From NCBI GenBank assembly GCA_030390025.1, contig CM059431.1, forward strand, positions 110,920,001 to 110,984,000: 64,000 nt of DNA, read 5' to 3'. Under the pieces are notes generated by a model. It saw only the letters and a program-made list of their open reading frames with translations. It searched no databases and was not told the DNA's origin. The number at the start of each line of letters is the position of its first letter. Positions within the stretch are counted from its first letter, which is position 1. The DNA is from Squalus acanthias. Taxonomy: Eukaryota. A program made the position numbers and the translations under genes. Shown piece by piece: positions 2,619-45,696 of this stretch.

Positions 2619-4714
2619 TCGTGTAACTTGTTGGTAATACTGGCTACACTCTGAACTCTGACCTTGTAATCCTAAATATCACCTTTGTTTTAGCAAGACA
2701 TCAAAAAGCTCTCATTACTGACATGGTAGAAAATTAATGTGCAGCAATATTAATTTCTAACCATATAATAGGTAGATGGGTTTCTCAAGGTCACCATTAT
2801 GGCTACACTAGCTATTTACAATCTTCTTTCCATCCTGTTTATGGGCTCAGTTTTATTTATTTAGCATTATGGCCAAAATAAACTTCCTCTACATTTGATG
2901 AGGCAAACATGTGCTCGATGAGATTTTGTGCAATATTCTGCCAATCCATTTGTCACAGAGCATTTAATATATTCTGTGCTTCAAAGGTCAGGACAAGGCA
3001 ACATAGGTACATGACCTAATGCTTTGCCATCAGTGCTTTGTTACACCTTTGGTGCTACAACATCATGAAGAAAAGTGCGAAGTGCTAGAGTGGAGGACCT
3101 GGCAACAAATGTGTATATTAAAATAAAAGTCAAAGTTACAGTAGTTGCAAAATGGTAAGTTGTTCAAACTTAAATACTTGTGCCACCATCCTATGGTAGA
3201 TAAGGACTCCATATTCTACGCTATTTCCTCTTTTACAGGCCATGTTCTGTCATGTCAAAAATACATTTAAATTGTCTATTTAATGTTTACTAACAGAATC
3301 TCCTGCGCTGCTAGTCATGGTGAGATTGAGGATTAGAATGACGGCACAAACTAAAGGTAAAGAGGCGAGGCAAAAACTCCTGAGGAGAAGGGTAGGGAAG
3401 GAGGAAATCTCCGGAGTCTTTGAAGAGGAATGCTTGAATGGAGGGATTGTAGGTTTCTATGGAAGGTTGAGCTAAACAGGCCAAATGGCCTCTCTCACCC
3501 ATGTTTATCTGTGTGTTCTTCCTGATCAGCTGTTTTATAATGACAGGAACATTATACTGTTGGATGCTTAAGGTATCACAAATACCCCGAAAATGCAGTG
3601 AAGGAAACAGATACTAAATAAAGCAGCCAGAAGGCTTCAAAACTGCCAGATATTCCCACTATTTTCTCAGGCCTGCTGTGGCAGCTGTAGTCCTGCCCAA
3701 GTTTCTATGTGCAAGGCCCTGCAAGGGGAAGGGCCTGCCTGAGCAGCATGTCGGGTACAAGATAATACCCTGATCCCAAAAATACAGGCAGGTTCAGGTC
3801 ATTACAAATAGAGAGCACTTTGGAATCACTCAGCCAGCCTGTACTCAGGTGCGGGAAGGACAGGCAAATCAGCCTCCATATCTCCTGGTCCTACCGTTGA
3901 GTTTTGCAATTGAAAGTCGAAGCAGGAAGAGGTGGTGATACAAGCCAAAAAGTGTTCCCCCTGTGTTATGATTACAATCACAAAAGAATAATGATTCAAA
4001 GTTATCTTGCAGATGTTGCCAAGTTTGTTCCCGCCCATTTTCTTCGTTTGGCCTTTTCCCTGATGGATAACGGTTATTTGAGGTCAGATATTTTACTTAC
4101 AGATGGTGCACTAAACCCCATGGGTTCCTCAGAAGCTTACAGCATCTTGTACGACCAATCAGCAGGGAATGTTCTTCAATGCTATTTTTGTGTTCGGACG
4201 AAAGCAATTCTAGAGCAAATCATTTTTCCGTTTGGAAGCATTTTTCTTGCAAGCCTTTTGGTGTGCAGCATTATTTTTCTTTTGAAGAAAGCTAATTCTT
4301 CAACAGAGATGCGACTGTAAAATGCTTCTCAACTTGGAAGAAAATAAAATTGAGATGGCCTAGGTCCTGTTCCTCCTGTTTGAGCTGTGTCTCCCGAGGC
4401 CATTCACAGAGGGAAACCACTCAATCTTATTCATCTCAGTTTTTGCATAAGTTTGTTCATTTTTCAGACAGATTGCTGGACAGAGCATTACACAGAGCTA
4501 AGGCATTGCACCTAGGGAGGAAAGAAAAGTTGATATTTTCTGATTAACCCACGCACACACGGCTCAGACTATCCTCCCTTCTCTGTCTGGAGGTGGGTGT
4601 GTGGTAGTAAGAGGCCTGACAAAGGGAAAGAGTACACATTTATATTCCATTTGTTTATTAATTGTCTTCTTATTTATTCTTACATAAAGTCTAGGTCATG
4701 AATATAAAGACTGA

Positions 4715-5479
4715 GGCCCAGAAATTGGACTTCGATGGTTGCCGCGGGGGTAAGGATCGTGCGCGATCTTACCTACCGCGCCTGCCTTTATGGTTTTGGC
4801 CCACACGAACTTCAGTTCCTGGGCCTCTCCCTGGTGCCAGCGCACAGTGTGTGCGTGTCCCAGAGGCGCAGTTAGTTCGATGCGACCTCTGGGATCACGT
4901 GGGCCATGGAGAGCCAATGGCAGCACACCATCTTTCATTCATAGTTTTGACAGGAAGAGCTGTCAAAACTATGAATACAACTTGCCCCCAAAAGAACAGC
5001 TAAACCTCAATTAAATTTAAAAAAAAACCCATCACATTAATAAAATAACTATAGTTAAATAAATTAACCACTATAAACAAAAATTTAAATTTTTGAAAAA
5101 ATTTAAATTCTTTTTAAAAGTTATAAAAATAAACTTACCTTTCTTTAAAGTCTCTAAAAAAGATAAACCTGTTGAAAAAAATTTAAAATAATACTTAATT
5201 AACTACTTACCTTGTTAAAAGGGGGTCTTACACCTCCTTTCTTCATGTGTAAAATCTTCAACACTTACCTTCGCGTTCAAACCTGAAAAAAAAACTAAGT
5301 GTGCTGCGTGCGCACAGCCTGTAGTGCGCACGCGGTTCACTTAGGAACCGCCCCTTCGCCATATCGGAAGTGCCAGTTTCCTGCGCATACGCAGTGCATG
5401 CAGGAAACCGGCACTTCGGGACCGAATATGGGTGAATACACAGTGCGTACTCTCCCGTATTCGGACGAATTTCTGGGCC
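4715..5479. mobile_element. MITE family A, copy 1 (Harbinger-type termini)
   Basis: Perfect 12-bp TIR GGCCCAGAAATT...AATTTCTGGGCC. Colinear with 12937-13680 and, inverted, with 15394-15578 + 19746-20326. Confidence 0.9.
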
Positions 5480-5654
5480 TATAGGAACAGAATGGAGAAC
5501 AAGCAATAACTGTATATCCTACCGACAGAATGTCAAAATATTCCATGTCAGCCTATAGATCCATGTTATAGATTTGTGTATTCTTTAAATAAAAGTCATT
5601 CAGCCATTTATTTATCCAGCAATGCAATTGAAATGACATATCATGAAAACTGTT

Positions 5655-5985
5655 CCGTCTTTCGGAAGAGACGTTAAACCGAGGCCCCGTCTGCTCTCTC
5701 AGGTGGACGTAAAAGATCCCATGACACTATTTTGAAGAAGAGCAGGGGAGTTATCCCCGGTGTCCTGGCCAATATTTATCCCTCAATCAACATCACTAAA
5801 ACAGAATATCTGGGCATTATCACATTGCTGTTTGTGGGAGCTTGCTGTGTGCAAATTGGCTGCCGCGTTTCCTACATTACAACGGTGACTACACTCCAAA
5901 AAGTACTTAATTGGCTGTAAAGCGCTTTGGGACACCCGGTGGTTGTAAAAGGCGCTATATAAATACAAGTCTTTCTTTTTTCTTT
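5655..5985 (+). mobile_element. Deu-domain SINE (SacSINE1/AmnSINE1-like), 5' truncated
   Basis: Contains TTAAACCGAGGCCCCGTCTGCTCTCTCAGGTGGACGTAAAAGATCCCATG...GAAGAAGAGCAGGGGAG, recognised as the Deu core, and an L2-type tail AAAGGCGCTATATAAAT.CAAGTCTTTCTTT. Confidence 0.85.
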
Positions 5986-7106
5986 AGTTCTGAGAAAACT
6001 CCGATACAGCATTCGGCTTTTTGATATCTCAATATTGCATGAAAAAGCAGGTAATATTTAATTCAGATTCTCCCTGGTTTGTAAGCAAGAGATTCTTGCC
6101 TATAGTACCAGGCAGCTGACTGCAAACATCCCCTTGGCCTCTGCCAATGTTGCTTTGTGAACAGCTGGCAGGGGTGCTGAGGTGTGACTGCTGGTCTAAA
6201 CTATGCCAATTTCCTCTCTAGTCACAAAGGCTGGGCACCTTGCCTGGGCTCAGTGACTGCATCTGATGAGTTGGCCGAGATTGGCAACATGTGGAGGGAA
6301 TGCCTGCGAGCAAATTCTCAGTCAAGGCTGGGAATTGAACCCAGGTCTGTCTGTCTGTGGAGTAGCTCATTAGCACAGTGCATCACAATTCTACTGCACT
6401 TATATATATATATCTCCCCTGATTGTAACTGAGGATTAATATCAGCTGTACAAGCATACAGTGAGACCGTTTACATATTTATTTCATGTACAGTTTGTTA
6501 TTCTTCACTTAAACAAGTTTTAACTTACTTTTCATTTTGGATGTTTTATTAGGTCGTGAGTATGGAGGGCCATTTGTTTATTTTCAAAATATACATGTTT
6601 TCTCTCATGCGACAGCTGTAAAAGTAATTTTCATCACATTTCTAATGTCGAAAATTACAAACTAGGGCCATATTAAAGAGCTCCAGGCATGTAACACATT
6701 GGTGCTCGAATCAGCCGTGCCACAGAGTAATAGAACAGGGGGTCACCCCAGGGAGATTACAAAGAGTCAGTCGGAGCTTCAGGGATAGGGGTGGTGAGTG
6801 AAGTTCAGCTGCTGCCACAGGCCAAACAGAGCAATCCTGGGTGTTATCATGGATGCTTCATTGATATCTGAGAGTCAGTTCGAAAGCAGAGGCATCTGAG
6901 CTTTATCTCTCAGATGGGGAGTGGTGGGCAATATAGAGAGGAGCGGGAAAACTATATTTTGAAGGAGGCAAACAAGTTAGTAAAGGGTAAAATCACAGAA
7001 GTATGGCATCGAGAATTGTGGGTGTTCCTCAGTTCACGATATTTTCTGCATTAGTAAAAAATATGGGGTGGCCTGGCAGCTATAACAATACAGCATCAGA
7101 GTGCTT

Positions 7107-7730
7107 GGCCTAGAAATCGGATTATTGGACGATAAACGGGCACTGCCGGGCCCAATATGGCGTGTGGCTCAGTCCGCACAGGAAGTGCGCCGCCCGTAGT
7201 CTTCCAGGGCGCTCGGCTGAAGCTGATGCCAGGCCGATTGCTGACGTGATTCGAGGGCCTAATGCACGTTTCAGGTCCATTTGTGAAATCGGTTGGCGGC
7301 TGACCGCAGTACGTGCCGCGCATTCACGTGGTCGGTTTTCTCAGGCGCGCAGCAGCCAAACCAACGGCCCCTACAGAGATCGCTGGAGACTGCCACCCCA
7401 AAAGGCCAGTTAAAAGTTACATTAAAACTGCGGGCCAACGCCGCCAGCGCTCGTCCTTCCCATCCCCCGACCCCAACTCTGGAATTACCTTAGGCCCTCA
7501 CTGGCGTCCCAGCCGATTGGTCTGGCTCCCACACACCCCCCCTCGATTCCACCCCCGCCCCCACCCCCGTGACCAATGAGCTGCCTCTGGGGCCGCGACT
7601 GCCAACCGCAGCTCGCCGGCCACGTACAAATGAGGCCGCTGGACCAATTTGCCATGATCCCACAATGGCAGTGTGCGCTTCACCTGAAACGTGCCCCACT
7701 TCAGCCGCCAGCCAATGACGAGGCCCTCTA
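7107..7730. mobile_element. GC/CpG-rich non-autonomous Harbinger-type element
   Basis: Starts GGCCTAGAAATC (same terminal class as family A), with an abrupt rise in CpG. Right end unclear. Confidence 0.5.
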
Positions 7731-8783
7731 GTCTCAGTCCAAATATATGCCGAATATTTGTACTTGGACTTCGTTCTGAAAGCAATCAATAGGAATCTCA
7801 GACACAGTGACTATGTGAGGGATCATGGGAAACCTGGACGGCAGGTTGCTGTATTGACAACCCTTGTACTGTCGGCAGGTCAGACAGTTTTATCCTTTCA
7901 ACCAATTAAGATGCTTGTGGGTTGCTAAATTGAGGAAACAAAATGTGAAGCGATGCCATTGCAGCACTGAAGAGGTTAACCAAACGTCTGTACTACTGGC
8001 CAGTGGTCATGGTGTGAGTAAAAAAAATTCTGACCACTGTCCTCATGCTCAATCTGAAACTAGATGCAGCATGCTGGGAATTTGCTGTTAATACATCAGT
8101 CATACGTAACACATGCATGGAGCGATACAAATACTTGTGGATAATGACACAATTGCCAGGCCGCAAGCTAAACTAAAAATAATGAACACAATAGCAGTGG
8201 CAATTAAAATGCAGGTCTTGCTTTGTTAGTTCCTGGTTGCGTGACTCAGAGCCAAGGTATTGTGTAGCCTAGGTAGTTCATTTTGGATTGATTTTCCATC
8301 AGGTTTTGCTTATGGCCCCCATTTCTCCCCCTTCCACTTACAACACAGTAAATACTTCAGGAAGTTGCCTCAGCGAAACAGACTGTCTGGAGCATGAAGG
8401 AATGCAGCAAAGGATAATCACAATATTATCAACTCCCTATCCTCCAAGGTAGCTGGTCAATAATGCAGTTCTAATTGAATAACTTATCTGCAGCTATTTC
8501 CCCTGGGAGAGGCGTAGATGCAGCATTTTCAGCGACGGCAGATGGTGCAGCATATACAATGGAAAAATACTGTGGTTTTCCTCGTTCCTGGAGCCCAGAG
8601 CTGAAGGGAATTCCCTTTCACTGTTCAGTCCACAGAGGAAAAAAAATCAAAGAAAGCCTCGTAATACATTGATTCAAAAGGAAAAAAGAATTATGATTCC
8701 GTCTCAAAATTCCATCTAAATAAGGCTTCAATGTATTTATATTGCAACTGAGTGCCTTTATCAAGCAGTTACTACAAGACATA

Positions 8784-8972
8784 GGGAGTCATTTTAACTT
8801 AACTCGCCGGGCAGGAATCCCACGGGATCGGGTGGAACGCCGGCTTTACGTCCCGCCCAATATTGCTCCCCGCTGTCTTCAACGGAGAGTAAAATCGGGC
8901 GGGGGTGTAAAACCAGCGTTGCGCCCAATCCCACCAGTTTCCCGACGGGCTGATTAGGTTAAAATTGTTCCC
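8784..8972. mobile_element. Short MITE
   Basis: Imperfect TIR GGGAGTCATTTTAAC ... GTTAAAATTGTTCCC with a CpG-rich interior. Confidence 0.65.
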
Positions 8973-9751
8973 TCGAGGCAGTTTCCTTACTCTAACAGTC
9001 AATCAAGTCTGAAGAGCAGTGAGAAGAAGGTAGCCTTGTTGGCCAAAGAGTAACTTCAGAAAGTTCCTTTCATCTCTGGAGATCAGGGCCTGGATTTCCC
9101 TCCCACTGGCGGGTTAGCGGTGGAACAGGAACACCATTCTCCAGTGCGAATCCCCTGCTAACCCACTGCAATTTCCTCCAGGTATCTCATCTGCTGCACA
9201 AGGCGGGTTTGGAGCAATAACACCGTTGCTGATAGGTTCACCGCTGCGGAGAAGGAGGGAAACTCAGTTAAAGAACGGCATCACTTTTCTGCAAGAATGG
9301 CTAAAGCATCGGCAGCCTCTTTGGTGTCAGCATCTGGAAGGGTTCTGAGATTTTTTTGAACAAATCCCTGGCTTCCAAGGGTATTTTTTTGGGGCTGTAC
9401 GGACACAGACCAGCAGCTCCTCTGAACCTCTGCCTGTTGGCATTGGGCCTACTGCTTGAAGGCCCCCTCCAGTGCCTACACACGAGGCGGCGAGAAGCCT
9501 AGCACCTCTTGCCACTGTAAGAGAAAGGCTGCTGGAAACTGCTCCCCTGAGACGAGAGTTACCTTAGGGCTCTAAAGCTCCAGGAGGCACCATCCCAGCC
9601 ACCCACCTCTCGATCCCATCTCACTCAGACTTGGAATAGTAGATTAGGATCACAGACGATTAAGTTAGCTGGCACAAAGAGTAGACATGGCATTGAAAAG
9701 TGGTTGTCCCTAGAGTGGTTCCAATTTATTGCCCTTTTTGAAAAGTCTGTC

Positions 9752-9875
9752 GGGATAATTTTGACTTCTGGTGATCGTGTAAAACGTCAACAGAAACAAA
9801 AATCGAGATGTATAATGAGAGGCCAATCGATATTTGCCTGTTTTACACTAATGGCGAAAGTCAAAAATTAACCCC
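9752..9875. mobile_element. Tiny hairpin-like MITE (~124 bp)
   Basis: GGGATAATTTTGACTT..GTGTAAAAC is inverted relative to GTTTTACAC..AAGTCAAAAATTAACCCC. Confidence 0.65.
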
Positions 9876-10009
9876 AGTGTGTGAAGTAAACACAGCAAGT
9901 GCACGAAGAGTTTGGAGCTCATTTCTGTGTATGCGTTCAGCTTTTGGAGGTTGGTATGATGGCAGGGGAAATGTAGACTTTTGTCTTACGAAGGAACTCG
10001 GCAGAAGTT

Positions 10010-10520
10010 ATTGACAGGCACATTGCGAGAGCGTGGGGACATGGTGGACTGCTGGAAAAGAAAGGCATCATGACCCTTGCTGGGCAAGTGGACATTCACC
10101 TACGTTATCCTGTGCAGATAGTCACAGGGCTGCTGCTCATTGAGTAGAAGCCCTTCCGGCTCATGGATGGGCCTCATGGATGGAGTACTCCTCTGTGCTG
10201 GGAAGAAAAATCCTAGGATTCTCTTGTCCATGGGGAAAATGATGCGATTACTTACTCTTGTAAACAAGGCCCCAGTAACCTGCCTGATGCATCTGACTGC
10301 ACTGCAGACAGACTGATGTTAATGATGCCCATGCCGACAGCCTGGAAGGAGCCCGAGGCAATAATGTTCAAGGTGGCTGTGACCTTCAGGGCCAAGGAAG
10401 TGCCTGCCTGCCTTGAAGCTTGGCTGGAGGTCTTCCTGCAGGATATTGCACAAGTCTCTCACCATCTCCTTTGTGCCTGTGCATGCGTTGCTTTTTTGCC
10501 CAGTCACGATAATTGCACTG
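10010..10520 (-). pseudogene. Degenerate Harbinger transposase
   Basis: Across frameshifts the minus strand reads KEMVRDLCNILQEDLQP, LKVTATLNIIASGSFQA, CIRQVTGALF, RKGFYS and GHDAFLFQQST. Confidence 0.8.
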
Positions 10521-10954
10521 TGCTGTTTGCACAGTGATGGAATGTGAGAAGCCTCCTTTTGCAAAGTAGCTTTGCTTCCCCTGGCATCCGAACATTCCTC
10601 CTCAAGCTCCTCCTCTTCCTTCACTTTGACTAACACAGGAGAACACAAGTGCAGCAAAGACGGTTTTAAATCACTGGGAAAGAAAACTATCATTATATCC
10701 AAAGTCAAAGCAGCTGGTTACCCCTTTAAAAATCTTTCGACCCAAAGTTGCAGCCTAGCAACTCAGAACGCCCCATATATGTTAGCATTCTTTGCACCCT
10801 CATACATCCAGCTTGATGGCAGGAAAATGATGCAGAAGGCGTTGTTACATCACCCCTGCATCTTTTCCATTTCAGGCAAGAGTTACCTTCGCCTGCCCCT
10901 TTGCTCGCTGCAGGTCATGTATAGGAACATTTTCCCCACATAATTAAAAAACGG

Positions 10955-11305
10955 ACTCTATGGCGCCTTCCACGATCGCAGGACGTCCCAAAGCACTTTA
11001 CAGCCACTGAAGTACTTTTGAAGTGCAGTCACTGTTGCAATGTAGGAAACGCAGCAGCCAATTTGGTGCACAGCAAGCTCCCACAAACAGCCATGAAATA
11101 AATGACCATGATCATCTGTTTTTAGGTGTTAGTTGAGGGATAAATGTTGGCCGGGACACTGGGGAGGACACCCCTGCTCTTCTTCGAAATAGTACCATGC
11201 GATCTTTCACGCCCACATGAGAAGGCAGACGGGGCATCGGTTTACCGTCTCATCTGAAAGACAACACCCCACGACAGTGCAGCATTCCCTCAGTACTGCA
11301 CCGAA
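10955..11305 (-). mobile_element. Deu-domain SINE
   Basis: Reverse complement of the element at 5655-5985. Confidence 0.85.
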
Positions 11306-12739
11306 TTACCAGCCTAGTCAACTCTGAGGGAGCTGAAGTTTCATTAGAGAAGATACAAGGCCTGCTTTGCCCTACCAGGCACTTTAACAGAGGAGCAGCG
11401 CTCACAGGAAGTGCTGGTTGGGAAACTGTGAGCCCAAAGTCCCTCATTTTCCATTCAGTCATTTAAATGGATGGAAAATCACGGGCTGTGGCCCTACAAT
11501 TTCCTGACCGACACTCCCTGCAAACGTCACCTTTCACCACTGGGCACAGTCGTAGCCTCAGCTCCGCATCGGCTGTACATTATAATTTAGTTCCCTCATA
11601 TTTTCAGGCTCACTGACTCTTCCAAGCCATTACCCACAACGTTGCCATCAGCACACACTGTTTAAACAAAATTATTCAGGAAAACAAACCACAATGGACA
11701 GAACACAGGGAAATGTGGACGGTTATCTTAATTCGTTGTAACTATTTTGATTTTTAAATGGTGTCCTCATTAAGGTTTGAACTGCAAATCATTACAGAAA
11801 CTAAATGGATTTAAGATAAAAATTAGACATATTCCATGGTGATATTAAAAGAAATCTGTTGTCACAACATCCATAGAAAACCATGTTTGTGATTTTCTGT
11901 TAGCCCTGTCAATGCCTGGAGGCATGTTTGTGTCTAACAAACTTGCTTGTAATTTCCCTGGCAATTAGATTTCTAAACTTAAATGCTGAAAAAAACAACA
12001 AATTATGAACTACTCCGGAAAATTTTAATTTTGCAGTAAATAAATATGCTTTGTAGTATAAAAGACAATTGAGAGCTTTAAATGGCTGCAGCACAGAACT
12101 GAAATAACCTCTTAAGTCTAGTTTCCCCATTTTACCATCCTTGCACTGTGTTAGAAGCTCTTGTGCTCTTTTGATGCCAGGGTTGAAGCTGCATTGCCGA
12201 TGAAATTCCAGGGGCGTGTGCCAGCCTTACCATGAGCCTGCGCCACTCCTAACCTTGAAGCAACATCATGAGATAGATTGTGTGGGATGGTGAAAAATGA
12301 CGTCATGCTCAACACACCTCCTGTCTGTAGCTGTTATCTATGGCTAAGGGTTACAGCGCACTATCGAGTACATAATACCGGGGGCATCTTTTAAAGGACG
12401 GATGCCAGAGTTATAATAATAAAAGCACCTTTACGTCTGATTTGCCCGACTTTTTAAAAATTCATTCTTGAGCTGTGAGCGTAGCTGGCAAGGCTAACAT
12501 TTATTACCCATCCCTTAGTACCCTGCGAAGGTGGTGGTGGGTTTTTTTCTTGAACCGCTGTAGTGGTTTGATCCAACTGAGTGGCCTGCTCGGCCACTTC
12601 ACAAGGCAGTTAAGAGTCAATCACATCGGTGTGGGACTGAAGTCACATATAAGCCAGACTAGGTAAGGGCGACAGGCTTCCTTCCCTAATGTGAGAAGTC
12701 GCACAACACCAGGTTATAGTCCAACAGCTTTATTTGAAA

Positions 12740-12776
12740 TCACAAGCTTTCGGAGCGCTGCTCCTTCGTCAGGTGA
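12740..12776 (-). ncRNA. Minimal type I hammerhead ribozyme motif of a Penelope LTR
   Basis: UCAC CUGACGA A GGAGC agc GCUCC GAA AGCU U GUGA: core boxes, 5-bp stem II, palindromic AGCU in place of stem III, 4-bp stem I. Confidence 0.75.
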
Positions 12777-12936
12777 AGTGAAGAGATGCATATAGGCACA
12801 GCATATATAGTCAGAGAACACTGCCAGATGATTACAGTTCATCTTTCTAACTGCCCTTTATCACACCTCGGCAGAGAGATAATCACGGCAATCATAGGTG
12901 TGGATGGTGTCCAAACAGGTCAGTCAGGAAAACAAT

Positions 12937-13680
12937 GGCCCAGAAATTGATCTCGCTCTGTTCCCGCGGGGGTAAGCCTTTCCCGCGATGTCTCACCTCG
13001 CTTATGCTTTTTCAGATCCAGCTCGCACGAACTTGATGTTCCAGACATCAGCTGTGCTGGGCTTGCGTATCCCAGCGGCGTAGTGAATTCGTGCGAGCTG
13101 TGGGATCACGTGACTCAGTTAGAGCCAATGGCAGCACACCATCTTCCATTCATAAGTCTCACAGCATGGCTGTGAAATCTATGAATCTTACACCCCCCCA
13201 AAATAACAGCTAAACCTCAATTAAATTTAAAAAAAAAAACATCACATTAATAAAATAAGTATAGTTAATTAAATTAACCATTTTAAATAAAAAATTAAAT
13301 TTTTGAAAAAATTTAAAATCTTTTAAAAAGTTATAAAAATAAACTTACCTGTCTTTAAAGTCTCTAAAAAAGATATACCTGTAAAAAAAAATTCAAAAAA
13401 ATACTTAATTCACTACTTACCTTCTTAAAAGCGGGTCTTACTCCTCCTTTTTACATTTCCAAAATCTTCCCTACTTACCTGCGCGTCCAAAGCATGAAGT
13501 GCACAGCGTGCGCGCAGCCTGTAGCGCGCACGCGATGCACCCAGGCCCCGCCCCCTTTTCAGAAGAGCAATTGCCGGTTTTCAGCGCATGCGCAGGGCAT
13601 GCAGAAAACCGGCAATTGGAGTGGGAATACGCGAGAGTACGCACTGCGTACTCTCGCGTCCCGGGATCAATTTTCGGCCC
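12937..13680. mobile_element. MITE family A, copy 2
   Basis: Termini GGCCCAGAAATTGA / TCAATTTTCGGCCC, flanked by AAT/ATT. Colinear with 4715-5479. Confidence 0.9.
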
Positions 13681-13892
13681 ATTACATCAAAGACAATGAG
13701 GTGGGGTCACAAGGGGTCAAATGTGGCAGATCCTTCCCTAAAGGAAGCGAAGGAACCAATTGGGTTTTATATGACAATCTGACAGCTTCATGCTCCCTTT
13801 TATTGATACAATTTTTTTTATTTTTTTTAATTCCAGATATATTTAAACCAAATTCAAATTCCCAAACTGCTGTGGTGGGATTTGAACTCATT

Positions 13893-15309
13893 GGGGGTGA
13901 TTTTCGGCAGCGTGTTCAGGTGCTAATGATCCTCCGAGATGAGAGTCTTGAGCTGAAATGTTGGATTATTTTTTTTTAATTTGTTCATGGGATATGGGTG
14001 CCACTGGCCAGCATTTATTGCCCATCCCTAATTGCCCTTGAACAACTGTGTGGCTTGCTAGGCCATTTCAGAGGGCAGTTAAGATTCACCACATTGCTGT
14101 GGGTGGAGTCACATATAGACCAGACCAGGGAAGGACAGCAGGTTTCCTTCCCTAAAGGACATTAGTGAACCAGATGGGTTTTTACAGTTACCATTTTTAT
14201 GGTCACCATTACTGATACTGGCTTTTTATTCCTGATTTATTTAATTAACTGAATTTAAATTCCCCAGCTGTCGTGGTGGGATTTGAACTCATGTCTCTTG
14301 GATTATTAGTCCAGGCCTCTGGATTATTAGCCCAGTAACATAACTACTATGCTACCATTCCCCCATGGTTTAGCCCCGTGTTTAGTGCACAACGCCATCT
14401 TGGTAAAGGAGTTGAAGGCAGTGCTAGGAACGGTCGACCGGAGGTTCATTAAGGGGCTGATTGCCACTTAAAATGCCTGCTAGCACTCATTAAAGAGGCT
14501 GCACAGCATTTTGGTGACTAGAGCTTGCCTTAACGCTCTCTTCTAACAGCGACCAGCTGTATGGGAGTAAACACGGCGTTGATGTTGATTTCAAGCACTA
14601 TTTAAAGGGATACTCATCATGCTCACTAGCTGCTGGAGCTGTGAAGAGGACCTCTGAAACACGTCGGGAGACTTTCTGGGACACTTTGTCAAGACTTCAC
14701 CAACACTAGAGCAACATTTATTCTGCAAATTCTCTGAGGAATTCCCCCCCAAAATTGTAAGAGCTGTGCTACTCCACCCTACTGGACACCTTATAGGAGT
14801 CACCTGGAGAAAGGGAGTGTTTGGTCATGGGCATCGTGCTAGGGGTCCCGCTTAGTCTGCAGGAGGAATGGGAGGAGGAGATGAGGCCAGGCAGAGCAGC
14901 ACCAGCTGCTGCAGGAGAGAGGGACAGGAGCGCGAGGTGGCGTTCTTCCCCCCTGCGGTACAGGACATCCCTCCTCCTCTGTACCTCCTCCACCAGGACC
15001 TCCAGTGCCGTATCCGAGAACCTGTGCACCCTCTCCCTCGGTCCCTGAGCTATCCCGCGACATGTCAGTGTGTGCCAGCCAGCGCACTCCACACCTTCAG
15101 TGGAAGTGGGTGCGAGGAGCCCACATATAACCGCTCCACAAAACTTGAGTGCTTAACCTGCAGGTTTCTGGTTTAGCAAATTCAAATGATAATAAACAGC
15201 AATTAGGACCAAAATTATGAGCTAAATCCAGACTTTCAAACAGGCATGTCTTATTAGCATTGCACCCATTTTGCACCTGTTTTCACACTTGGGCCAAAAA
15301 AAAAACATA
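13893..15309. mobile_element. Internally deleted Harbinger: transposase 5' end (+) fused to Myb gene 5' end (-)
   Basis: Starts GGGGGTGATTTT with ATT on both flanks. Plus strand from 14828 reads MGIVLGVPLSLQEEWEEE. Minus strand 14940-15060 reads PRERVHRFSDTALEVLVEEVQRRRDVLY (Myb/SANT N-terminus). Confidence 0.75.
13970..14365 (-). mobile_element. Family-B tRNA-derived SINE, near full length
   Basis: Colinear with 306-755. A/B-box head lies at the right end on the minus strand. Confidence 0.8.
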
Positions 15310-16090
15310 TTCTCTGGATTATTAGTCCAAGGCTCTGGATTAATAATCCAGAGAATGTGAGGTTGAATCATATTATTACCAGTAATCAGTCTTGGGCCAA
15401 AAATTCGGCCCTTGCCAGGTGAGTACGCACTGTGTACTCACCTGTAAGGCATCCTGAAGTGCCGGTTTCCTGCATGCACTGCGCATGCGCGGGAAACCGG
15501 AACTTCCGGTCTGGTGAAGGGAGCGGTTCAGAGGTGAACCGCGTGCACGGTAGAGGCTGCGCGTACGCAGCAAACTTAGGGGTAAAAATTCAGTTGGTTG
15601 CGCCTCCCGTTAGCGCCTTAAGAGGGCGCTAATGGGGTGCAAAGCCGCTAGCGCCTGGGCGCAGCGATGTTTGCGCCGCTCGGGAACTTAACTAGACATT
15701 GTGCGGCGGCGCTAAACTTTACCGCCGCGACCACCTGCGCGCGCAGATTGTGACGTCATTCCATGGTGCAACGCCCTTGTGGCGCCCCGGAGCGGAAATT
15801 GAGTGGCGCCCCCTGCCTTACCGCCTGGCGCATCCAACGACCGGAAGACTGGAACGCTATCAATCGATGTGGGGCTGGGGGGGGGGGGGCGCTATTTAAA
15901 GGGGGCCTCTTCCTGTCTTTTTCTGTGGTTGACATTTTTGCACCACTCGTTCTGAGAGAGAGAGATTCGGAGAGAGAGAAAGAGAGACTTCTGCATTGAG
16001 TCAACGCTTTGTGAGGTAGTTTTGCCTACTGATCCTAACTTCGCTGCTACTTTGGTTGCTGTCCTTCATAACTTTGCTTGCAAAGAGACT

Positions 16091-17251
16091 ATGGGGGCTG
16101 CACTGATTGGGGGCGTCGTCCTGCTCCAGCTGAATCGGAGGACACAGAGATGCAGAGAGAGAGTGGCAATGATGGCCAGACGGAGGAGGGCCAACAGGCG
16201 TATGTACAGGAGAGCTTACCCTCCCAGGGTATATCGTGAACAGCTCTCCTACATTCATATGTCTGAGGAGCTGTGTTTGCGAAGGCTGCGATTCAGCAAG
16301 GAGGTGGTCACTGAGCTCTGCCACCTGCTGCAGCCAGATCTGCAGCCTCAACTGAGGTCCAGGACGTCTCTGTCGGTGGCAGTGAAGGTCACAGTGGCTC
16401 TCAACTTCTATGCTACTGGCTCATTTCAAGCTGCTGCTGGGGACCTCGCCAATATCTCCCAGTTCGCGGTGCATTGCTGCATCCGGCAGGTCACAAATGC
16501 CCTCTTTAAAAGGAGACGAGAGTTCATCTCTTTCCCCATGACCCTAGACAAGCAGCGTGACCGCGCTCTGGGCTTTGCGAGGATAGCGGGCTTCCCCATG
16601 GTGCAGGGCGCCATTGACTGCACGCATGTGGCTTTGCGTGCTCCACATGAGAATGCCGAGGAATTCCAGAACAGAAAGGGGTTCCATTCCTTGAATGTTC
16701 AGTTGGTCTGTGACCACAGACAGCTGATACTCGCTGTCAATGCCCACTATCCTGGCAGCTGCCACGATGCTTTCATCCTGCGTCAGACTACTGTGGCAGA
16801 ACTTTTCGAGGCACCGCATCAGCCAGTTGGTTGGCTTCTCGGGGACAAGGGGTATCCATTGAGCACCTGGCTGATGACACCGCTCCGTACGCCCAACACC
16901 CCTGCTGAGCTGCGGTACAACGAGAGCCATCAAGCTACCAGGAACATCATTGAGCGCACAATCGGCGTGCTGAAGCAACGGTTCTGCTGTCTCGACCATT
17001 CTGGAGGAGCCCTGCAGTACTCGCCTGAGCGAGTATCCAACTTTGTAGTTGTGTGCTGCATGTTGCATAACATGGCAATCGTCAGGACCCAGCCAATGCC
17101 ACCAGGTCTTGGAGCACCACCAGAGGAGGAGGAGGAAGAGGAGGAAGAGGACGAGGAGGATGATCATCAGCAGCACCAAGGCGGGAGGGCGGCCCACAAT
17201 GGTGAAACTGAAAGGGCCGTCCGTCAACGGCTGATAGCAAGCCGCTTCTAG
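16091..17251 (+). CDS. Harbinger DDE transposase (HARBI1-family), 386 aa from the first ATG
   Basis: Motifs VTVALNFYATGSFQ, GAIDCTH, NRKGFHSLNVQLVCD, HDAFI, LLGDKGY, IERTIGVLKQRF, CCMLHN and an acidic tail. D-D-E residues present. No stops or frameshifts. Confidence 0.95.
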   Translation: MGAALIGGVVLLQLNRRTQRCRERVAMMARRRRANRRMYRRAYPPRVYREQLSYIHMSEELCLRRLRFSKEVVTELCHLLQPDLQPQLRSRTSLSVAVKVTVALNFYATGSFQAAAGDLANISQFAVHCCIRQVTNALFKRRREFISFPMTLDKQRDRALGFARIAGFPMVQGAIDCTHVALRAPHENAEEFQNRKGFHSLNVQLVCDHRQLILAVNAHYPGSCHDAFILRQTTVAELFEAPHQPVGWLLGDKGYPLSTWLMTPLRTPNTPAELRYNESHQATRNIIERTIGVLKQRFCCLDHSGGALQYSPERVSNFVVVCCMLHNMAIVRTQPMPPGLGAPPEEEEEEEEEDEEDDHQQHQGGRAAHNGETERAVRQRLIASRF

Positions 17252-17563
17252 GGCCCCTGCTGTGGAAATGGCTTCTGCCATTGCTAACAACATCAATCAA
17301 CCCAGCACGCAACCCCTAAGCCGGCCAAGGCACCAATGATTCCAAACACCAAACATGTATATTTTGAATACAAAAACTTATTTATTTTACAAACTCTGTG
17401 TGTGTCATTTCCTCATGACAAACTGATAGAAATAAACACAAAAAAACAGTCATTAACATAACTGGTTCTCACAACCTGGAGATAATGTCCAAAACACTCG
17501 ACAAAAGTTGGACCACGAACCTCGGCCTTTAATAAAAAAATGACCAGCATTTTGTCACACCTC

Positions 17564-19383
17564 CTACTTTTTGCCCTTCGAGGGTGATCTCCTTCCCTTG
17601 CGCACTTCCCCCCTTCTAACCCTACTGCTCCTCCGTAATGGGACCTCAGTGGCTGCAGCAAGGCTGGTGGAAGGCTGCTGATCGTCAGACCCTGACACTG
17701 CAGATGCCCCTGAAGGACGGCCTCGACCAGTTCTGGGCCTGGAGGGCCCGGCTGCAGACTGCACCAACTCTGCATGGGCGGCAGCAGTCTGTCCTACAGG
17801 CGGTGGCAAGTGCAGTGGAGAAGTGACAGTGTTGGCAGCAGGAATGCTGTCATCGTGAGAGAGGACAGCAACTCCCTGCTCGCCCGACACACTGGCACTC
17901 CCACGGGGCAGCACTTCAGCATCCGGAGCAATCTGCTGGAGCACAGATTGCTGGCCTGCTGCGGCGCGGTGAGAGCCCCGGGGACATGTGAATGAACCAT
18001 CGAGGTTGGCAGCAGTCAGTGCTCGCGTGGCCTCAATCTGAGTCTGCATGAGAGCAGTCAGAGATGGGATCACGGCAGTCAGTGACTGAATTGCAGCACT
18101 AAGCCTTAGTGTGGCATCCGCCTGTGCTACAGCGAAGTGCTCCACACTCCTTGCCAGTGACTCAATGCATTCGGGCACCCTTCCCACTGCACCCATGAGC
18201 TCAGTGTGCATGCCCACCGCCTGGGTGTTCATTTCTGCGATCAGCCGCTCCTCCTCTGCGTCCATTGCAGTAGGAGTCTCTGGCATACTCTCCCTCTGGG
18301 GAGAAGGCCCCCGTTCTTCCCTACCCCCATGGCGTTGCTGCAGCCCGCTGGGTCCTGGAGCTTCACCCTCATCAGACCCTTCCCCCCTGCTCCCCTCCAG
18401 GGAAGGCGTGTTCCCAGTGTGGGCATGGGCTTCCTCGGGAGAGGGTGGCACTGATGCTCCAGCTTCCTCTTCCTCCTCGGCTGCAGCTTCACTCCCACTG
18501 GCAGCTTCAGGGCCCGTCTCCTCAGTTGGTGAATCACCATCTGAAAGCAGGGAGGTACAAGAGTGGCTTTAGCGTGAGAACAGGGTGGCAGTAAGGGAGG
18601 AATAAGTGCAGCGAGTTAGCAAGTTATATTGAAAGTGTCAAAGGCTGGTGTTGTGAGGGACAAGTGGAAGGACAGAGGACAAAAAGGTGATGACCTTACC
18701 ATTGCTGTCCAGAACGGGGTCGGCGTCTCCAGTGGCGACGGGACCGATCACCCGGCTTGCCACAATCCTGTGGACGCGCTCCTCAAGATCGCTGAGGGGT
18801 TGCAGCTGAGGCCGCCCTCCACCTGTCCGTTGCTGCTGTCTCCGATTATGCGCCAGCTTGGCCTGCAAGAAAAAGGACAGCATCTGAGTAAATATACAGC
18901 CATGGTCTTGCCTGATGTGCCTCCCATAGGTGAATAGCCCTTACTCTATGCAGCCATGGTCTTGCCTGATGTGCCTCCCATAGGTGAATAGCCCTTACTG
19001 TATACAAAGTGTGGAATGTGTGTGTGTGTTTCATGAAAGGGCCATAGGTGTTGGATGAGTGTTGTGCATTGGGGTTTTAAGACCCTCTGGCCATAGAGTG
19101 AGGTTGAGATGGAGGGATGGAGAGGTATTGAGAAAAAGCCACTCACCCTGACGACCCGAGTGAGGTCATTGAACTTTTTGCGGCATTGAACATGGGTCCT
19201 GGGCACCATGCTCCTGGAGGAGACGCTCTGAGCCACCTCCCTCCACACTCTTCTGTACTCGCGTGGCAAAGGCCTCCTGCCACTCTCAGGGAAGAGCATA
19301 CATCTTCTGCGCTCCACCGCGCCAACCAGAGCATCCAAGGCCCGCTCGGTGAAGCGCTGAGCTCGTTCTCTCACCCTCTCCAT
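17564..19383 (-). CDS. Harbinger Myb/SANT-like DNA-binding protein; join of 19383-19147, 18862-18700, 18540-17564; 458 aa
   Basis: Exon 1 encodes RFTERALDALV...LFP...W.EVA..V....RTHVQCRKKFNDL. Introns GTGAGT..TTTTTCTTGCAG (phase 0) and GTAAGG..CTGCTTTCAG (phase 1). Exons sum to 237+163+977 = 1377 nt in frame. The same exon 2 length and acceptors occur in copy 2. Confidence 0.9.
18897..19004. repeat. 54-bp tandem duplication in intron 1 of the Myb gene
   Basis: CAGCCATGGTCTTGCCTGATGTGCCTCCCATAGGTGAATAGCCCTTACT begins at both 18897 and 18951. Confidence 0.9.
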
Positions 19384-20944
19384 CCTTGGCAGCAAAATGG
19401 ATTCACAGGTCTCTCCAGGCCGAGATTCAAGGCTGCAATGAGCAGGGTGTGGCTGGGGAGCAAGTTGCCCCCCCCCGCTTTAAGAACTGGCCGGCGCCAG
19501 TGTGTTTGTGTTCCCTCGCTAACTGGCAGCACCTGCGCTGCGCTCGCGCGCTGAGTTAGCGCCTCACTGCTCGGCCTTTGCGCCTTAAGACAGGTGTGCA
19601 GCGCCTGATTTAGTGCTCCACTCACCTCCCGGGGCGGTAAAAGTGAAGTTTCCAGTCAGTGGCGATAATTAGCGCCAGGCGCTAATATTTGCGTCCAGAC
19701 GATATTTGCGCCCCAAACGGGGCGCGACCTAATTTTTCCCCCTTATGGTTTTTTTTCAGGTTTCTACGGGAAGGTAAGTATTGAAGAACCTACGCTTTTA
19801 AAAAGGAGGCGCAGGACCCGTTTTCAATAAGGTAAGTGGTTAATTAAGTATAATTTAAAATTTTTTTCAACAGGTTTATCTTTTTTAGATACTTTAAAGA
19901 AAGGTAAGTTTATTTTTAGCACTGTTGAAAAGTATTTTAATTTTTTCAAAAATTTAAATTTTTGTTTAAAGTAGTTAATTTATTTAACTTATAGTTATTT
20001 TATAAATGTGATGGGTTTTTTAAAATTTATTTGAAGTTTAGCTGTTCTTTTGGGGCCGATTTCAATTCATAGATTTGATTGGTCTTCCTGTCAAATCTAT
20101 GAATGAAAGATGGTCTGCTGCCATTGGCTCTCCATGGCCCACGTGATCCCAGGGGACGCATCGCACTAACTGCGCCCCTCAGACACGCAAGCACTGCACG
20201 CCGGCACTTGGAGCAGGCCCAGGAGCTGAAGTTCCCGTGGGCCCAGAGGTCAACGGCAGGCGCGGTAAGTAAGTGCGCGCGCGATCCTTACCCCCGCGGC
20301 AAGCCGGAGAGGCGAATTTCAGGGCCATTATACATAAAAAGAAAGCTAAAAAGCAGCATTTTATATATCGGTACAATCAGCATTTAGATCTAGCAGCTGG
20401 TTCTGTTAAATCCAGAGGTCAGAAGAACCTTAGCTCATTATTAGCTGCATTTATGATGTCACTTTTGTAAATGGCTTCAGTATGTGCTGTTAATTCACTC
20501 CAAGTGACTGTGCATGCAGACAAGGTCTGATGGTGTTTCATCTGAAGAAGGTGGTGGTGGTTGAGGAATGTGGCAAAATCAATGGAATTTAGTTTTGGAG
20601 CTGCACTTTCTGCTGCTTCTTTGATTCTAGATTTCAGAGTAATGCACTTGAATAGCAGTAAATTATTGAGCTACTAATTTGGAAAGCGCAGAAAGGGCGC
20701 AACCAGTGAAATTGTGCTTTTAAGTGTAAGAGCAACATTAATTTTTTTTTAAATAACCTAGAATTTCGATAGCTATATCCGTAAGGCACCATTTTAAACT
20801 CCCGATATAATACTTTTGCGATCGACACATGTTCTGATTCACGCAATCCTCGGGCCGAAATAGTGCACAGTGTCATTCACCTGTGTATGGTCATTCCTAT
20901 TTGAACTTATGGGCTTGGGATAATTAGGAATGCTGGGGGTTAAA

Positions 20945-24689: not shown

Positions 24690-24805
24690 TTCAACAACAA
24701 CAACTTGCATTTATATAGCGCATTTAACGTAGTAAAAATGTCCCAAGGTGCTTCACAGGAACGCTATCAAACAAAATTTGGCACCGAGCCACATGCGGAG
24801 ATATT
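24690..24805 (-). mobile_element. L2 LINE 3' tail
   Basis: Matches 55483-55600, including the (CAA)n tail. Confidence 0.75.
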
Positions 24806-24814
24806 ACGCATTGC

Positions 24815-26430
24815 CGGATCGAGAGCCGATTTAGGTCAACAGTGTCGCCCCCACCACCTGGCTCCAGTATCGAAAGAAGCTTCATGATCTCAGACCACTG
24901 GTCATGGTCAGTGAATGCATCTTCAAAAGCCGTCTCCTACCAACTGCACCACTAGCCTCACACACTGCTCACTGCACGACCCCCGCCCCCAATCACTCAC
25001 CTACCAGCAATCTGCACCAATCGCGAGGCACTTCTCCCATTCCTAGCCTCACCTTACCTCCTTGGAGGAGATGGTGCAGGCCATTCTTGGCAGGAGCATG
25101 GCTAAGCCCTTGGCCCTCATCTTCATACATTATCCTCCTTCTGGCATGCACCTCTTGCTTTCCTGCCCTCCCCTCACCACAACTCCACCCTTGTGCCTTC
25201 CTCATTTCACACACCCAAGAAATGCAGCCTGCCCAGCCAGTGGTTGGCCAAGAAGAGGGAGAGGAGAGTGAAGAAGAAGAAGAAGAAGAAGAAGAAGAAG
25301 AAGCACCGTCACTCGATTTGACACTCCCAGCCACCAGCTGCTCAAGATCGACCAGCAAGGCCATTTGAAGTCCCCCACTGAAAGTAAGCAGCCTTCCACC
25401 AGCCATGCTACAGCCACTGGGGTAGCACTGCGTGACCTCACTAGGATAGGCAAAGGCACACACAAGACAGTCATTAAGAGAATTCATAAGGGTGATGTGT
25501 TGATTTCTGATGTCACATTGGATGGATAGACGTATATAGGCAGATTGGAAAATTTGCTTTGTGGTGGCTTTTATTTCAGCATTGTGGCCAAGAGGACGTT
25601 GTGATGGTCAGTAACAGAGGGAAGGTAAGGTGTGGGACTAATGCTGAAAGGGGAATTGGGGCTGTGGTCACTGGGACCACAGGCGGATGATTCCATCCCG
25701 GATATCCCGGCCACAAATGGGCAGTCTGGGATGCATCCTTCCGTACGATTCCTCCTCTTCGGCGTCCTCCTCTTCCCTCTGCAAGCGGGGATGTTGTAAA
25801 TGTGAAATGACAGCGTGAAATGACAATGTAAAATGCTGGAAATACTCAGCTGGTGAAACAGCACCTCAACCTGAGACGTGGACTCTTTTTCTCTCCACGG
25901 ATGTTGCGTGACCTGCTGAGTATTTACAGCATGTCCTGTCTTCTCAAAGGCCTTCAATTACCTTCCGAGCTCTTGAAAATATCCAGCAGCACTCCCTACA
26001 TACTTAAAAAAAACTTTCCACATCGATTGCAGCAGGCCACCACTTCAATAAAATAAAAATAAAAAATCCAAAACCATAAATCCAAACTTACATGAATGAG
26101 GTGTGTGTCCCTTTAGGAGGTGCAGATTTCGCCTCTGTCAGCCTGCTTGCACGCCAGGTTAACATGGCATGTTTAGGTCCCAACGCTGAATTCAGCGCTA
26201 GGGTCGAAGTTAGCGCTTGCGACGTAAAGTCGGCGTTGAACTTCGATTTACGTCACAACGGCGCCATTTTGCTGGAGATGGCACTGCCAGTTACCGGCAA
26301 CGCAAAGATAGGGACCAAAATGGTGGCTGCCGCGAGGCCCGACAGCAACTGGCGATAGAGCAGCGGCCGCCGTTTTAGCGCCAATTAGTGGTGCTATGGA
26401 GTGGCGCTAAGGCCACGAATTTCTCGCCCT
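24815..26430. mobile_element. Harbinger relic: Myb gene exons on +, transposase 5' region on -
   Basis: Plus strand reads TWLQYRKKLHDL followed by a GT donor, then LTSLEEMVQAILGRS, then an acidic exon with (GAA)n. Terminus GAATTTCTCGCCC at 26430 with TAGCGCC/GGCGCTA motifs. Confidence 0.7.
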
Positions 26431-34532: not shown

Positions 34533-36280
34533 GGCCAAGATTTCGCTGACCTCGGTGGGTGACGTCGGTGGCGGGTCGCGACCCCGCTGCTGTCTCCATC
34601 CAGCTGTTCGAAATGAATTTCCGTTGATTGGGCTTGTTAAACCCGCCCTGCGCATTTCCCGGCCAATTAGAGGAAGTGGGTCTGGTGACATCATTTGATG
34701 ACGTGTCATCAGCCGGTTTCCTTAAAGGGACCATGGTCAAATTTATTTTGACATGTGTGCTGTCAGTGTTCTACAGCATTGAGGTTCTGCAAACACTGAC
34801 AGTCACTGCACAGAGGCAGAGGGCTGCACCCAGGCTCTCCCATGACTCCCTCCATATGCTTATGAGGGAGTCACAGCACGCAAGGAGGTCCTCTTCCCTT
34901 CCCATGGGTGGAAGAGACCTCCCCAGGAGATCAACACAGCCTGCTTGCACATTGCAGAGGAGGGCACAAGCAGGGATGTGGTCAGGAGAACCTGGGTGCA
35001 GTGCTGCAAACGTTTCAATGATCTCAGTAGATCACAAAACGTTAGTACAAAGCCACACTCGACCTCATCCTTCTGTGCCTCTCATCACATCCCCATCACT
35101 CTGCCTTCCCTACCCTACTTCTGCACATCCTTACTCACACCAACTTACCTTGCACCTCCACCCATCCCTCTCTCTCTATCTATATTATCACAACCCCATC
35201 TTACTAGCCACCCCTCACACTCACCCTCACCATCATACCAATTAACAACACACAAGGGTAGGCACTTGAGTGATTTATGCAATGTTCATGTAAAGTTTCT
35301 GTTAATGTGGTGTCAAACTTTGAAACCTTTATTTTCAACACTTTCCATTCTTGGACTGATTTGTGTGCACCTTTGGAAGTGGCTTAGTGAGTTGCAGTGA
35401 ATGGTGAGACATAACGGTATCCCCCGCAATGGTGATGAGTGTGAAAGGAATGGCTTGGACATTGTAGGGATGCTTTATGGTGCTGGTGTGGGGTGGTGCC
35501 AACCTGGTGCATCATGTGGCAGCCAGGGTGTACAGCATCAGGTGAAGTAAATTTGGCCATGCTGAGGCCATCCCTGGCCTCCCAGGCAGCAATGTGGTCG
35601 GGTGCTGATGCCCTCTGTCCTGTGCAATATCAGTTGATTGCGGAGAAGGTTGGTGTTGATGTTGGTGCTGCTGGTGTTCCTGGTGATGCTGGTGTTGGGG
35701 CTGATCGTGGTGGGATTCTGAGGACCAAGGTGAGAGAGTATAAAGGGCAACCATGCTGATAGAATAGATGGCAGGTGAAGTAGAGATGACAGAAGTGATC
35801 TGTCAATGGTGAGAGAGGTAATGAGGTCAGACTGGATGGAGACTTGTGTAAAGACTTGCATCATGGTTGTGGAAATGCAGTGAGGAAGGGCTTGTGGCTG
35901 AGGGAACATGTCTCACTCAGCTGGGAGCTTTTACTTGACATTTGAAGCTGTCAACTCATCAGCTGATTCAATGGCCACTGACCTCCCGCCTCAGCTTCAC
36001 AGACGTGGTCTGGCAACAGCGTGAAACCCGTGGGTGACCTGTCAAATTCAAAAGGTCAGTTTAAAACTATTGTTAAGTGGCTGTAAACAAGCCACTAATC
36101 ATTTAAATTGGCTCCCCCGCCGCTGTGTGTCGGGTCTGCTCAGCGCTGGCAGACCCGACATTTGGTAAAGGCGCGTAGCGGTAGGTTCACAGCTGGGCCC
36201 CGAACCGTTGGGGAAAATAATCACTTTCCCACCCAACCCACCACCGATTGCGCCCGCTGACCCCCCGGAAAATCTTGGCC
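34533..36280. mobile_element. Non-autonomous Harbinger (1748 bp) with a Myb/SANT exon-1 remnant, inserted in a Deu-SINE
   Basis: Perfect 11-bp TIR GGCCAAGATTT/AAATCTTGGCC and TAC TSD (34530-34532, 36281-36283). Plus strand ~34810-35040 reads RAAPRLSHDSLHML..RKEVLFP..RRTWVQCCKRFNDL with one frameshift. The SINE sequence GTGACTAC|ACTTCA is split at the site. Confidence 0.9.
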
Positions 36281-45081: not shown

Positions 45082-45696
45082 ATAACAGAGAAGATGGCAC
45101 TTGAGATCAAGAGCTACATCATTATAGCCAGCTCGCAGCCCCTATGACTGGCCAAAGTTCCAATGAGAAACATGAGGAAAATTATAACCTTTAAATAAAT
45201 ATTTTTATTCTCTGAACAACTGTGTCTTACACAACCAATAACAAACAAACACAACAATTTATTTACAAAGACAACTGGTTCTTAGCACATCGAAATAATT
45301 CTTAACAAAGAGAATAAGATATTTACAAACACATCCCATCTTTGGTACAAACACTCCCCCCATCTGTTCGAAAAATGTTAGTTAGTGGGCCTTCTTCAAT
45401 GATCTCCCTCCCCTTCGCACTTCCCCCCCTTCCCCCCTCCCAACCCTACTGCTCCTCCGTAATGTGGCCCCAGTGGCTGCAGCAAGGCTGGTGGAAAGCT
45501 GCTGAATCTGGGAGCCAGAGACTGCAGACGGCCTTGCAGGACCCCCTTGGCCAGCTCTGGGCCTGGAGGGCCCGACTGCAGACTGCACCACCTCAGCATG
45601 GGCGGCAGCAATCTAGGCTGGCTGGGTTACAGGCTGTGGCAAGTGCAATGGCGGAGTGGCAGTGGTGGGAGCAGGAATGCTGTCATCCTGAGAGAA

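Follow-up and report, generated by a model that had tools for sequence, protein, structure and literature searches.

In the 64,000-nucleotide stretch of Squalus acanthias DNA analysed here (hereafter the window), a PIF/Harbinger-type MITE carries three co-oriented splice-donor signals in its interior, a cluster that is real and far above chance. The account that we tentatively prefer is that the left half of the element works as the start of a gene, having probably come from a 5' UTR of which it is a relic, and that selection on the transposing master copies has maintained it. An earlier note on this DNA had proposed a U1-binding or splicing module or a relic 5' UTR; the internal sites and their fixed geometry fit this proposal, whereas the terminal donor-like motifs that it had listed do not belong to such a module.

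As that note had recognised, the window contains three copies of a single MITE family, a Harbinger-type element of about 765 bp. Copy 1 (4715–5479, minus strand) is an uninterrupted 765 bp, and copy 2 (12937–13680, minus strand, 744 bp) belongs to a diverged subfamily that is 73–78% identical to the other copies, the three pairwise identities being 84%, 78% and 73%. Copy 3, on the plus strand, lies in two pieces: a left arm (15394–15578) with a 12-bp TIR, nested GC-rich hairpins and a CpG o/e of 0.94, and a right part (19746–20326) with the splice-signal cassette, the AT-rich core, hairpins and the right TIR. The interruption is a full autonomous Harbinger of another family (15579–19742, plus strand, 4.16 kb), inserted at TTA with a perfect duplication (15576–15578 and 19743–19745). 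This nested element encodes a 386-aa transposase (16091–17251, plus strand; DDE_Tnp_4, E 2.5e-39) and a convergent, intron-containing Myb/SANT gene (17564–19383, minus strand, exon limits approximate; Myb_DNA-bind_5, E 5.4e-09), the first intron of which holds a tandem duplication of ~55 bp (18890–19000). It is apparently intact and is inserted between the left arm and donor 1 with its transposase co-oriented with the arm, possibly by chance.

Harbinger elements are abundant in this window. A second autonomous Harbinger (43406–48139), about 69–74% identical to the first and with TTA-like flanks, has an insertion in its Myb gene at about 45700–46240 and reads LGNKGY where the first reads LGDKGY. 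Harbinger-like derivatives at 14400–15150, 24800–26430 and 34540–36280 are decayed but apparently retain parts of a Myb-like frame, with no Pfam match. A scan of 150 of the 276 unmasked ORFs of at least 60 aa in the window revealed no host gene (three matches, all below the cut-off), nor did a crude exon scan yield a coherent one.

The MITE consists of GC-rich arms of nested hairpins around an AT-rich core, and its palindromic structure is strong (fold z = -12.6). Its 12-bp termini have the form GG[GC]CC..AAATT in all three copies; this short, G-starting TIR pattern is the same as that of the DDE_Tnp_4 and Myb autonomous elements at 15579 and 43406, and is all that these two share with the MITE. 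No parent element with the ends of the MITE was found within the 64-kb window. The copies (744–766 bp) are without coding capacity, the sole frame of at least 150 aa that overlaps any of them being a start-less 203-aa frame that exits copy 2. A snoRNA or another RNA gene was rejected as the identity of the MITE, since a search of Rfam over 4600–20500 gave four matches, all far under the gathering score. The flanking trinucleotides at 4715/5479, 12937/13680 and 15394/20326 are ATA/TCA, AAT/ATT and CTT/ATT, with no perfect repeat. The target-site duplication is given as TWA for PIF/Harbinger and ANT for Pangu in the consulted part of PMC4482050; the flanks fit a decayed site of either kind, ANT (Pangu-type) or TWA, and the family may use the ANT type.

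At three copies per 64 kb, the family is common in the window, and 14,158 contigs of sequencing run X1 were placed on one copy. Its peak summed word depth is 3.0e6, compared to 36–48 for contigs that enter the flanks; as a rough ratio this suggests tens of thousands of copies, although depth is not copy number. Contigs of sequencing runs show that organisms D and E have the family as well, and two exact-pattern scans of metagenomes returned 0 additional copies. Among the sequencing runs that a search listed as containing the family, none is on record as RNA, which says nothing about its expression. By its termini, structure and abundance, the family behaves as a high-copy, non-autonomous PIF/Harbinger-type element. 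It is like the Tourist-like MITEs of the PHIS superfamily (mPing, Xenopus Harbinger-N12A_XT) in TIR pattern, lack of ORF, palindromes and very high abundance, but differs from them in its internal donor-intron-exon-donor cassette and in a target-site duplication that is not a clean TWA.

The three donors of copy 3 were found as the earlier note had described them, AAG/GTAAGT on the plus strand at 19771–19779 (donor 1), 19829–19837 (donor 2, 58 nt after donor 1) and 19901–19909 (donor 3), with GT at 19774, 19832 and 19904. The same 8-mer recurs three times on the minus strand of copy 1 (9-mers at 5263–5271, 5205–5213 and 5133–5141) and of copy 2 (13473–13481, 13415–13423 and 13343–13351), with a shift of one nucleotide relative to the 13474 first given for copy 2, where two of the sites do read CAG/GTAAGT. 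Within the 64-kb window, MAGGTAAGT occurs at 14 sites, nine of them inside the three MITE copies (~2.3 kb), and among 5,000 dinucleotide shuffles of copy 1 one site appeared in 1.9% and two sites in 0. The donors lie at about positions 200–345 of the 765-bp element, i.e. internally. Harbinger MITEs in this window do not share such donors as a rule, since another ten putative elements of Harbinger type, delimited by eye, are not enriched (1.73 donors per kb, or 14 in 8,082 strand-bases, compared to 1.58 for the window, or 202 in 128,000). Three other elements (26091, 28392 and 29253) have a donor-like site at the boundary between GC arm and AT core. An origin of the three donors by tandem triplication is unconvincing, as CAGGTTT, upstream of donors 1 and 3, is all that their flanks have in common, and maintenance through hairpin symmetry was rejected, the complementary 8-mer being absent from the sense strand of the element.

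The inward-facing donor-like motifs near the ends, which had been regarded as part of the same module, turned out to be halves of subterminal palindromes and to be variable. CAG/GTGAGT at 15419 forms half of a palindrome, and copies 1 and 2 read GAGAGT there. At the right end, GGG/GTAAG is present in all three copies as part of a palindrome that, with the right TIR, occupies 20260–20326 of copy 3 (plus strand); six contigs of sequencing run X23 have GGGGTGGG instead.

The internal sites have a constant arrangement in all three copies: donor 1, donor 2, a branch-like motif, a T-tract with CAG/G, a 30-nt exon and donor 3. In copy 3, the putative GT-AG intron (19774–19873, plus strand), exactly 100 nt in every copy, contains donor 2, the branch-like TTAAT at 19840 (TTAAT or GAATTAA across copies) and the pyrimidine tract of acceptor 2 (19861–19874, plus strand). 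It is followed by the putative exon (19874–19903, plus strand), 30 nt in every copy and with a stop in one of its three frames. Acceptor-like tracts had been noted in front of two of the donors: the second is present in all three copies, whereas the first (19749–19760, plus strand in copy 3) is found in copies 1 and 3 and is missing from copy 2, a gap shared by a contig of run X18. The usual minimum for a vertebrate intron is ~65–70 nt. From donor 1 to acceptor 2, the GT-AG ends, the branch motif, the pyrimidine tract and a workable length (100 nt) are all in place, whereas the distance from donor 2 to acceptor 2, at 42 nt, is too short for ordinary vertebrate splicing. As far as sequence can tell, the conserved unit is thus a putative donor 1, 100-nt intron, 30-nt exon and donor 3.

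All three donor 8-mers are invariant across copies that are 73–84% identical, but the statement that neighbouring bases differ applies to donor 1 only. Ungapped flank invariance is 0.47–0.58 around donor 1, which forms an invariant 8-mer inside a variable zone, compared to 0.69–0.77 around donor 2 and 0.83–0.85 around donor 3. At these local rates, the chance of an invariant 8-mer in the three-copy test is 0.002–0.013 for donor 1, 0.05–0.12 for donor 2 and 0.23–0.27 for donor 3. When the donors are excluded, 1 of 78, 12 of 78 and 35 of 161 windows of 8 columns are fully invariant in the three local zones, and 68 of 640 along the whole alignment. For three invariant donors, a joint value of ~4e-4 to 1e-3 results, which is carried by donor 1 and is somewhat inflated because the motif was noticed partly for persisting. 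These statistics rest on the three full copies and on the listed parts of the family variant tables. Donors 2 and 3 are therefore individually unremarkable, and only donor 1 clearly beats its flanks; the comparison of donors with flanks that the earlier note had called for, run on three copies, favours conservation for donor 1 and gives flank-like values for the other two.

The tolerated changes respect splice rules. In two copy 2 donors, A is replaced by C at -3, within the M of the consensus; the copy 2 acceptor reads TTACAG for CAACAG, and an A>C change in the acceptor tract accounts for 93% of the depth in organism D, so that the acceptor varies solely toward more pyrimidine. No donor position is among the 40 listed of 146 variable sites of the family, a weak test (p 0.13–0.24). 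Organism D, a more distant species, shows 12 listed differences in 5118–5232, none of them in donor 2, donor 3 or CAG/G (p about 0.08 by hand, with 31 of 66 sites listed). In run X1, no other bin of the family reaches the depth of the 31-nt bin of donor 3. In organism D, this bin keeps 0.27 of its X1 depth, compared to 0.000–0.089 for other bins of the AT core, including one lost bin that is 0.90 invariant among the window copies. That organism likewise retains the blocks with the E-box, the hairpin, YY1/CCAAT and the NRF1-like motif. The donor-1 bin keeps 0.003, a value that would stay low even with the 8-bp island intact, given its diverged flanks. Judged by their pattern of change, the internal sites resemble genuine splice signals that are constrained to some degree.

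One could argue that a 5' UTR or intron fragment with strong sites from the outset was simply carried over neutrally, the AT core evolving slowly as a whole and donor 1 being lucky. The AT core is indeed 0.76–0.90 invariant per 50 columns among the three copies, donors 2 and 3 match their flanks, and per-copy decay is low and largely of CpG type. Moreover, three full copies were compared, the motif was picked partly for its persistence, and a donor-1 variant may exist: one consensus of loose ends of run X1 reads GGGGTAGT at donor 1 (20 contigs, agreement 0.75, median length 15), so that some subfamily may have lost donor 1. Neutral carry-over leaves unexplained, however, the local p value of donor 1, whose right flank varies without CpG sites, the retention of the donor-3 block in organism D where equally invariant AT blocks are lost, and the splice-consensus character of the tolerated changes. 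We regard this explanation as unlikely.

In a second alternative, AGGTAAGT would be a site for a protein that binds DNA, either a Myb/trihelix protein of the parent element or a host factor, and the match to U1 would be incidental. Selection on a DNA transposon works on its DNA, and trihelix GT-box sites resemble GGTAA. Each of the three copies also has two GGTRAG motifs, arranged as a palindrome, at its right end. The two autonomous Harbingers contain nine and eight repeats of GCG[CG]TAA in their ends (15579–15880, 19480–19742, 43406–43720 and 47900–48139), where it is a candidate Myb/trihelix site, and a Myb-like protein binds element ends according to the consulted part of PMC9179366. Yet the donors lie 200–340 bp from the nearer end, and the family has another candidate site, an invariant GAGTACGCA at position 27 (15421, plus strand, in the left arm of copy 3). 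Sinzelle and colleagues are said to have described, in 2008, the Harbinger3_DR site GCGTACGCA, to which GAGTACGCA is close. In addition, binding to DNA would not account for the acceptor, the branch-like motif, the fixed 100- and 30-nt spacing or the tolerance of A>C at -3. This alternative is rather improbable in our view.

No GT-AG joint at any donor was listed in the two possible-RNA runs, X18 and X23, whose contigs are short and whose RNA label is guessed. The splice joints that the earlier note had proposed to look for were thus absent from these contigs, which constitute a weak test, being short pieces of a high-copy repeat with an uncertain RNA label. No donor was found among the 24 listed of 595 loose ends in four runs, and there was no depth step at the donors, X18 and X23 covering the element about evenly. 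The sole internal skip in X18, from 5083 to 5195, has GT..AA ends on the strand of the element and four extra letters and is therefore read as a deletion variant. Depth in X23 is higher over the left arm and also, more weakly, over the right arm, an excess that GC bias or a species difference explains equally well.

The left half of the element is laid out as a Pol II gene start would be, with a CpG-rich, motif-bearing arm followed by the putative donor-intron-exon-donor series, in which donor 3 is unpaired. The CpG o/e of the left arm is 0.94–1.15, compared to 0.46 for the window. Upstream of the donors, the arm carries NRF1-, ETS- and SP-like motifs (in copy 3, NRF1-like at 15480 and ETS-like at 15502, both on the plus strand), and downstream of them a hairpin is followed by motifs that are YY1-, NFY- and E-box-like (AAGATGG, ATTGG and CACGTG in 20065–20147 of copy 3, plus strand, retained in organism D). 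Promoter-type motifs number 5–6 per copy compared to 0.4 in shuffles, with a motif list drawn up post hoc. The NRF1-like palindrome at position 5389 has the family reading in 96–100% of the depth in four runs. Several of these 'promoter' motifs are palindromes or lie in hairpin stems, which the element forms anyway. The arms of the hairpin at 20065–20103, and of its counterparts in copies 1 and 2, change together, by selection or by template switching. YY1-type motifs also occur in other Harbinger-like non-autonomous elements of the window (821, 872, 24213 and 26262).

U1, YY1, NRF1, ETS, SP and NFY make up six of the ten promoter motifs of the Puffin model, in which the U1 motif acts after initiation (bioRxiv 2023.06.27.546584, as far as consulted). 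The MITE resembles this grammar of vertebrate housekeeping promoters in that its NRF1-, ETS- and SP-like motifs are placed upstream of U1 sites that share one orientation, and in that it contains NFY- and YY1-like motifs; it differs in having the latter two downstream of the donors, in the overlap of several motifs with hairpins, and in a start site that is putative. NRF-type sites are also borne by frog Harbinger MITEs, as stated in the consulted text of PMC12676858.

Splice signals are known from other DNA transposons. Introners are DNA transposons that have splice signals at the element ends and are removed precisely; the MITE shares with them the presence of such signals on a DNA transposon but has them internally, with no precise removal, and identity with an introner was rejected, since the sites are internal only and no host exon was found around any copy. 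Pack-TIR or Pack-TYPE elements carry pieces of host genes. Like these, the MITE has a TIR shell around an exon-intron-like fragment, but no donor gene was identified for it and its 30-nt exon is too short for a protein search. A similar layout is that of maize Ds1/Ds, a hAT element that is likewise non-coding and on one strand of which three donors and two acceptors lie; two of the Ds1 donors are identical to Ds donors whose use was shown by RT-PCR (PMC5432752, consulted in part). The passages of PMC2921059 that were consulted deal with the introns of the Ac transposase.

This likeness leads one to ask whether the MITE, in the manner of Ds1 or of introners, is spliced out of host transcripts, as the earlier note had suggested under the name of masking of intronic insertions. 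The sites of Ds1 are terminal, within 35 bp of the ends in the consulted part of PMC5432752, whereas those of the MITE lie 200–340 bp inside, have perfect consensus and delimit a putative intron and exon. If donor 1 were used, about 210 nt of the element would remain in the spliced RNA, and there is no conserved acceptor near the far end. The internal position largely excludes Ds1-like masking, which we consider extremely unlikely.

In the open-access literature, we found no description of an internal donor-intron-exon-donor cassette in a MITE (subscription journals, Repbase and supplements being outside this scope) and none of a non-autonomous Harbinger with splice sites in a cartilaginous fish. 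The word 'splice' is absent from a study of frog T2-MITEs (PMC6004289), and PMC9179366, in the part consulted, reports no Harbinger in elephant shark and recommends the examination of other cartilaginous fish. That a very abundant non-coding DNA transposon bears a consensus-perfect cassette under some constraint is moderately surprising.

The decay of the copies bears on where selection would act. Among the listed near-fixed differences of copy 1, five of eight are CpG deaminations, so that this copy has decayed like a methylated repeat and any selection is most likely on master lineages; the idea that all copies are unmethylated was accordingly rejected. Most between-copy differences look subfamily-level, which likewise places selection on masters and not on inserts. 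Both observations speak against a benefit to the host, in which sense-oriented copies in very long introns would supply U1 sites that suppress premature polyadenylation, or exon traps made of a promoter and a donor, and would for this reason be retained. In favour of such a benefit, the core has no poly(A) hexamer in sense compared to 4–6 in antisense, the putative 30-nt exon keeps the reading frame, and an enrichment of Harbinger MITEs at open chromatin specific to the liver is described for frogs in the consulted part of PMC12676858. However, zero sense poly(A) sites are expected from T-rich composition (P 0.25–0.32), and the strand asymmetry as a sign of U1 action on polyadenylation was set aside as explained by composition. 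The CpG decay of copy 1, which is that of a silenced repeat, also counts against a host benefit, which is very unlikely.

For the gene-start account, which we tentatively prefer, what has been observed is the motifs, the geometry, the excess conservation of donor 1, the retention of the donor-3 block in another species and the CpG decay of copy 1. The module would likely derive from the promoter and 5' UTR of the parent element, or from a captured host 5' end, and would likely be maintained by selection on a few transposing master copies. In such a master, the left arm would start transcription, U1 snRNP would bind the donors and render transcription productive, putative splicing could follow, and the transcribed copy would stay accessible to the transposase-Myb complex, to the benefit of its mobility; ordinary inserted copies would be methylated and then decay. 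Mobility of mPing, another Harbinger MITE, is altered by internal sequence, according to the consulted part of PMC9921582. Evasion of HUSH through splice sites alone is disfavoured, being contradicted by PMC8770142, in the consulted part of which spliced stuffers with splice sites gave no HUSH protection.

If the constraint were DNA binding, or if the cassette were neutral, what would be left is a newly annotated family of Harbinger MITEs. It is possible, though doubtful, that this DNA transposon, which has no RNA stage, has been selected for RNA-level signals in several related species, keeping a minimal version of the start of a housekeeping gene as a gene mimicry that serves mobility or counters silencing. 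If the constraint is real and acts via U1, selection on splice signals would be operating in an element without an RNA intermediate. This would offer a testable reason for some MITEs outcompeting their parents, and very many portable cassettes of promoter plus donor would be scattered through these genomes, where they could start chimeric transcripts, insert an exon of 30 nt that preserves the frame or, in long introns, influence premature polyadenylation.
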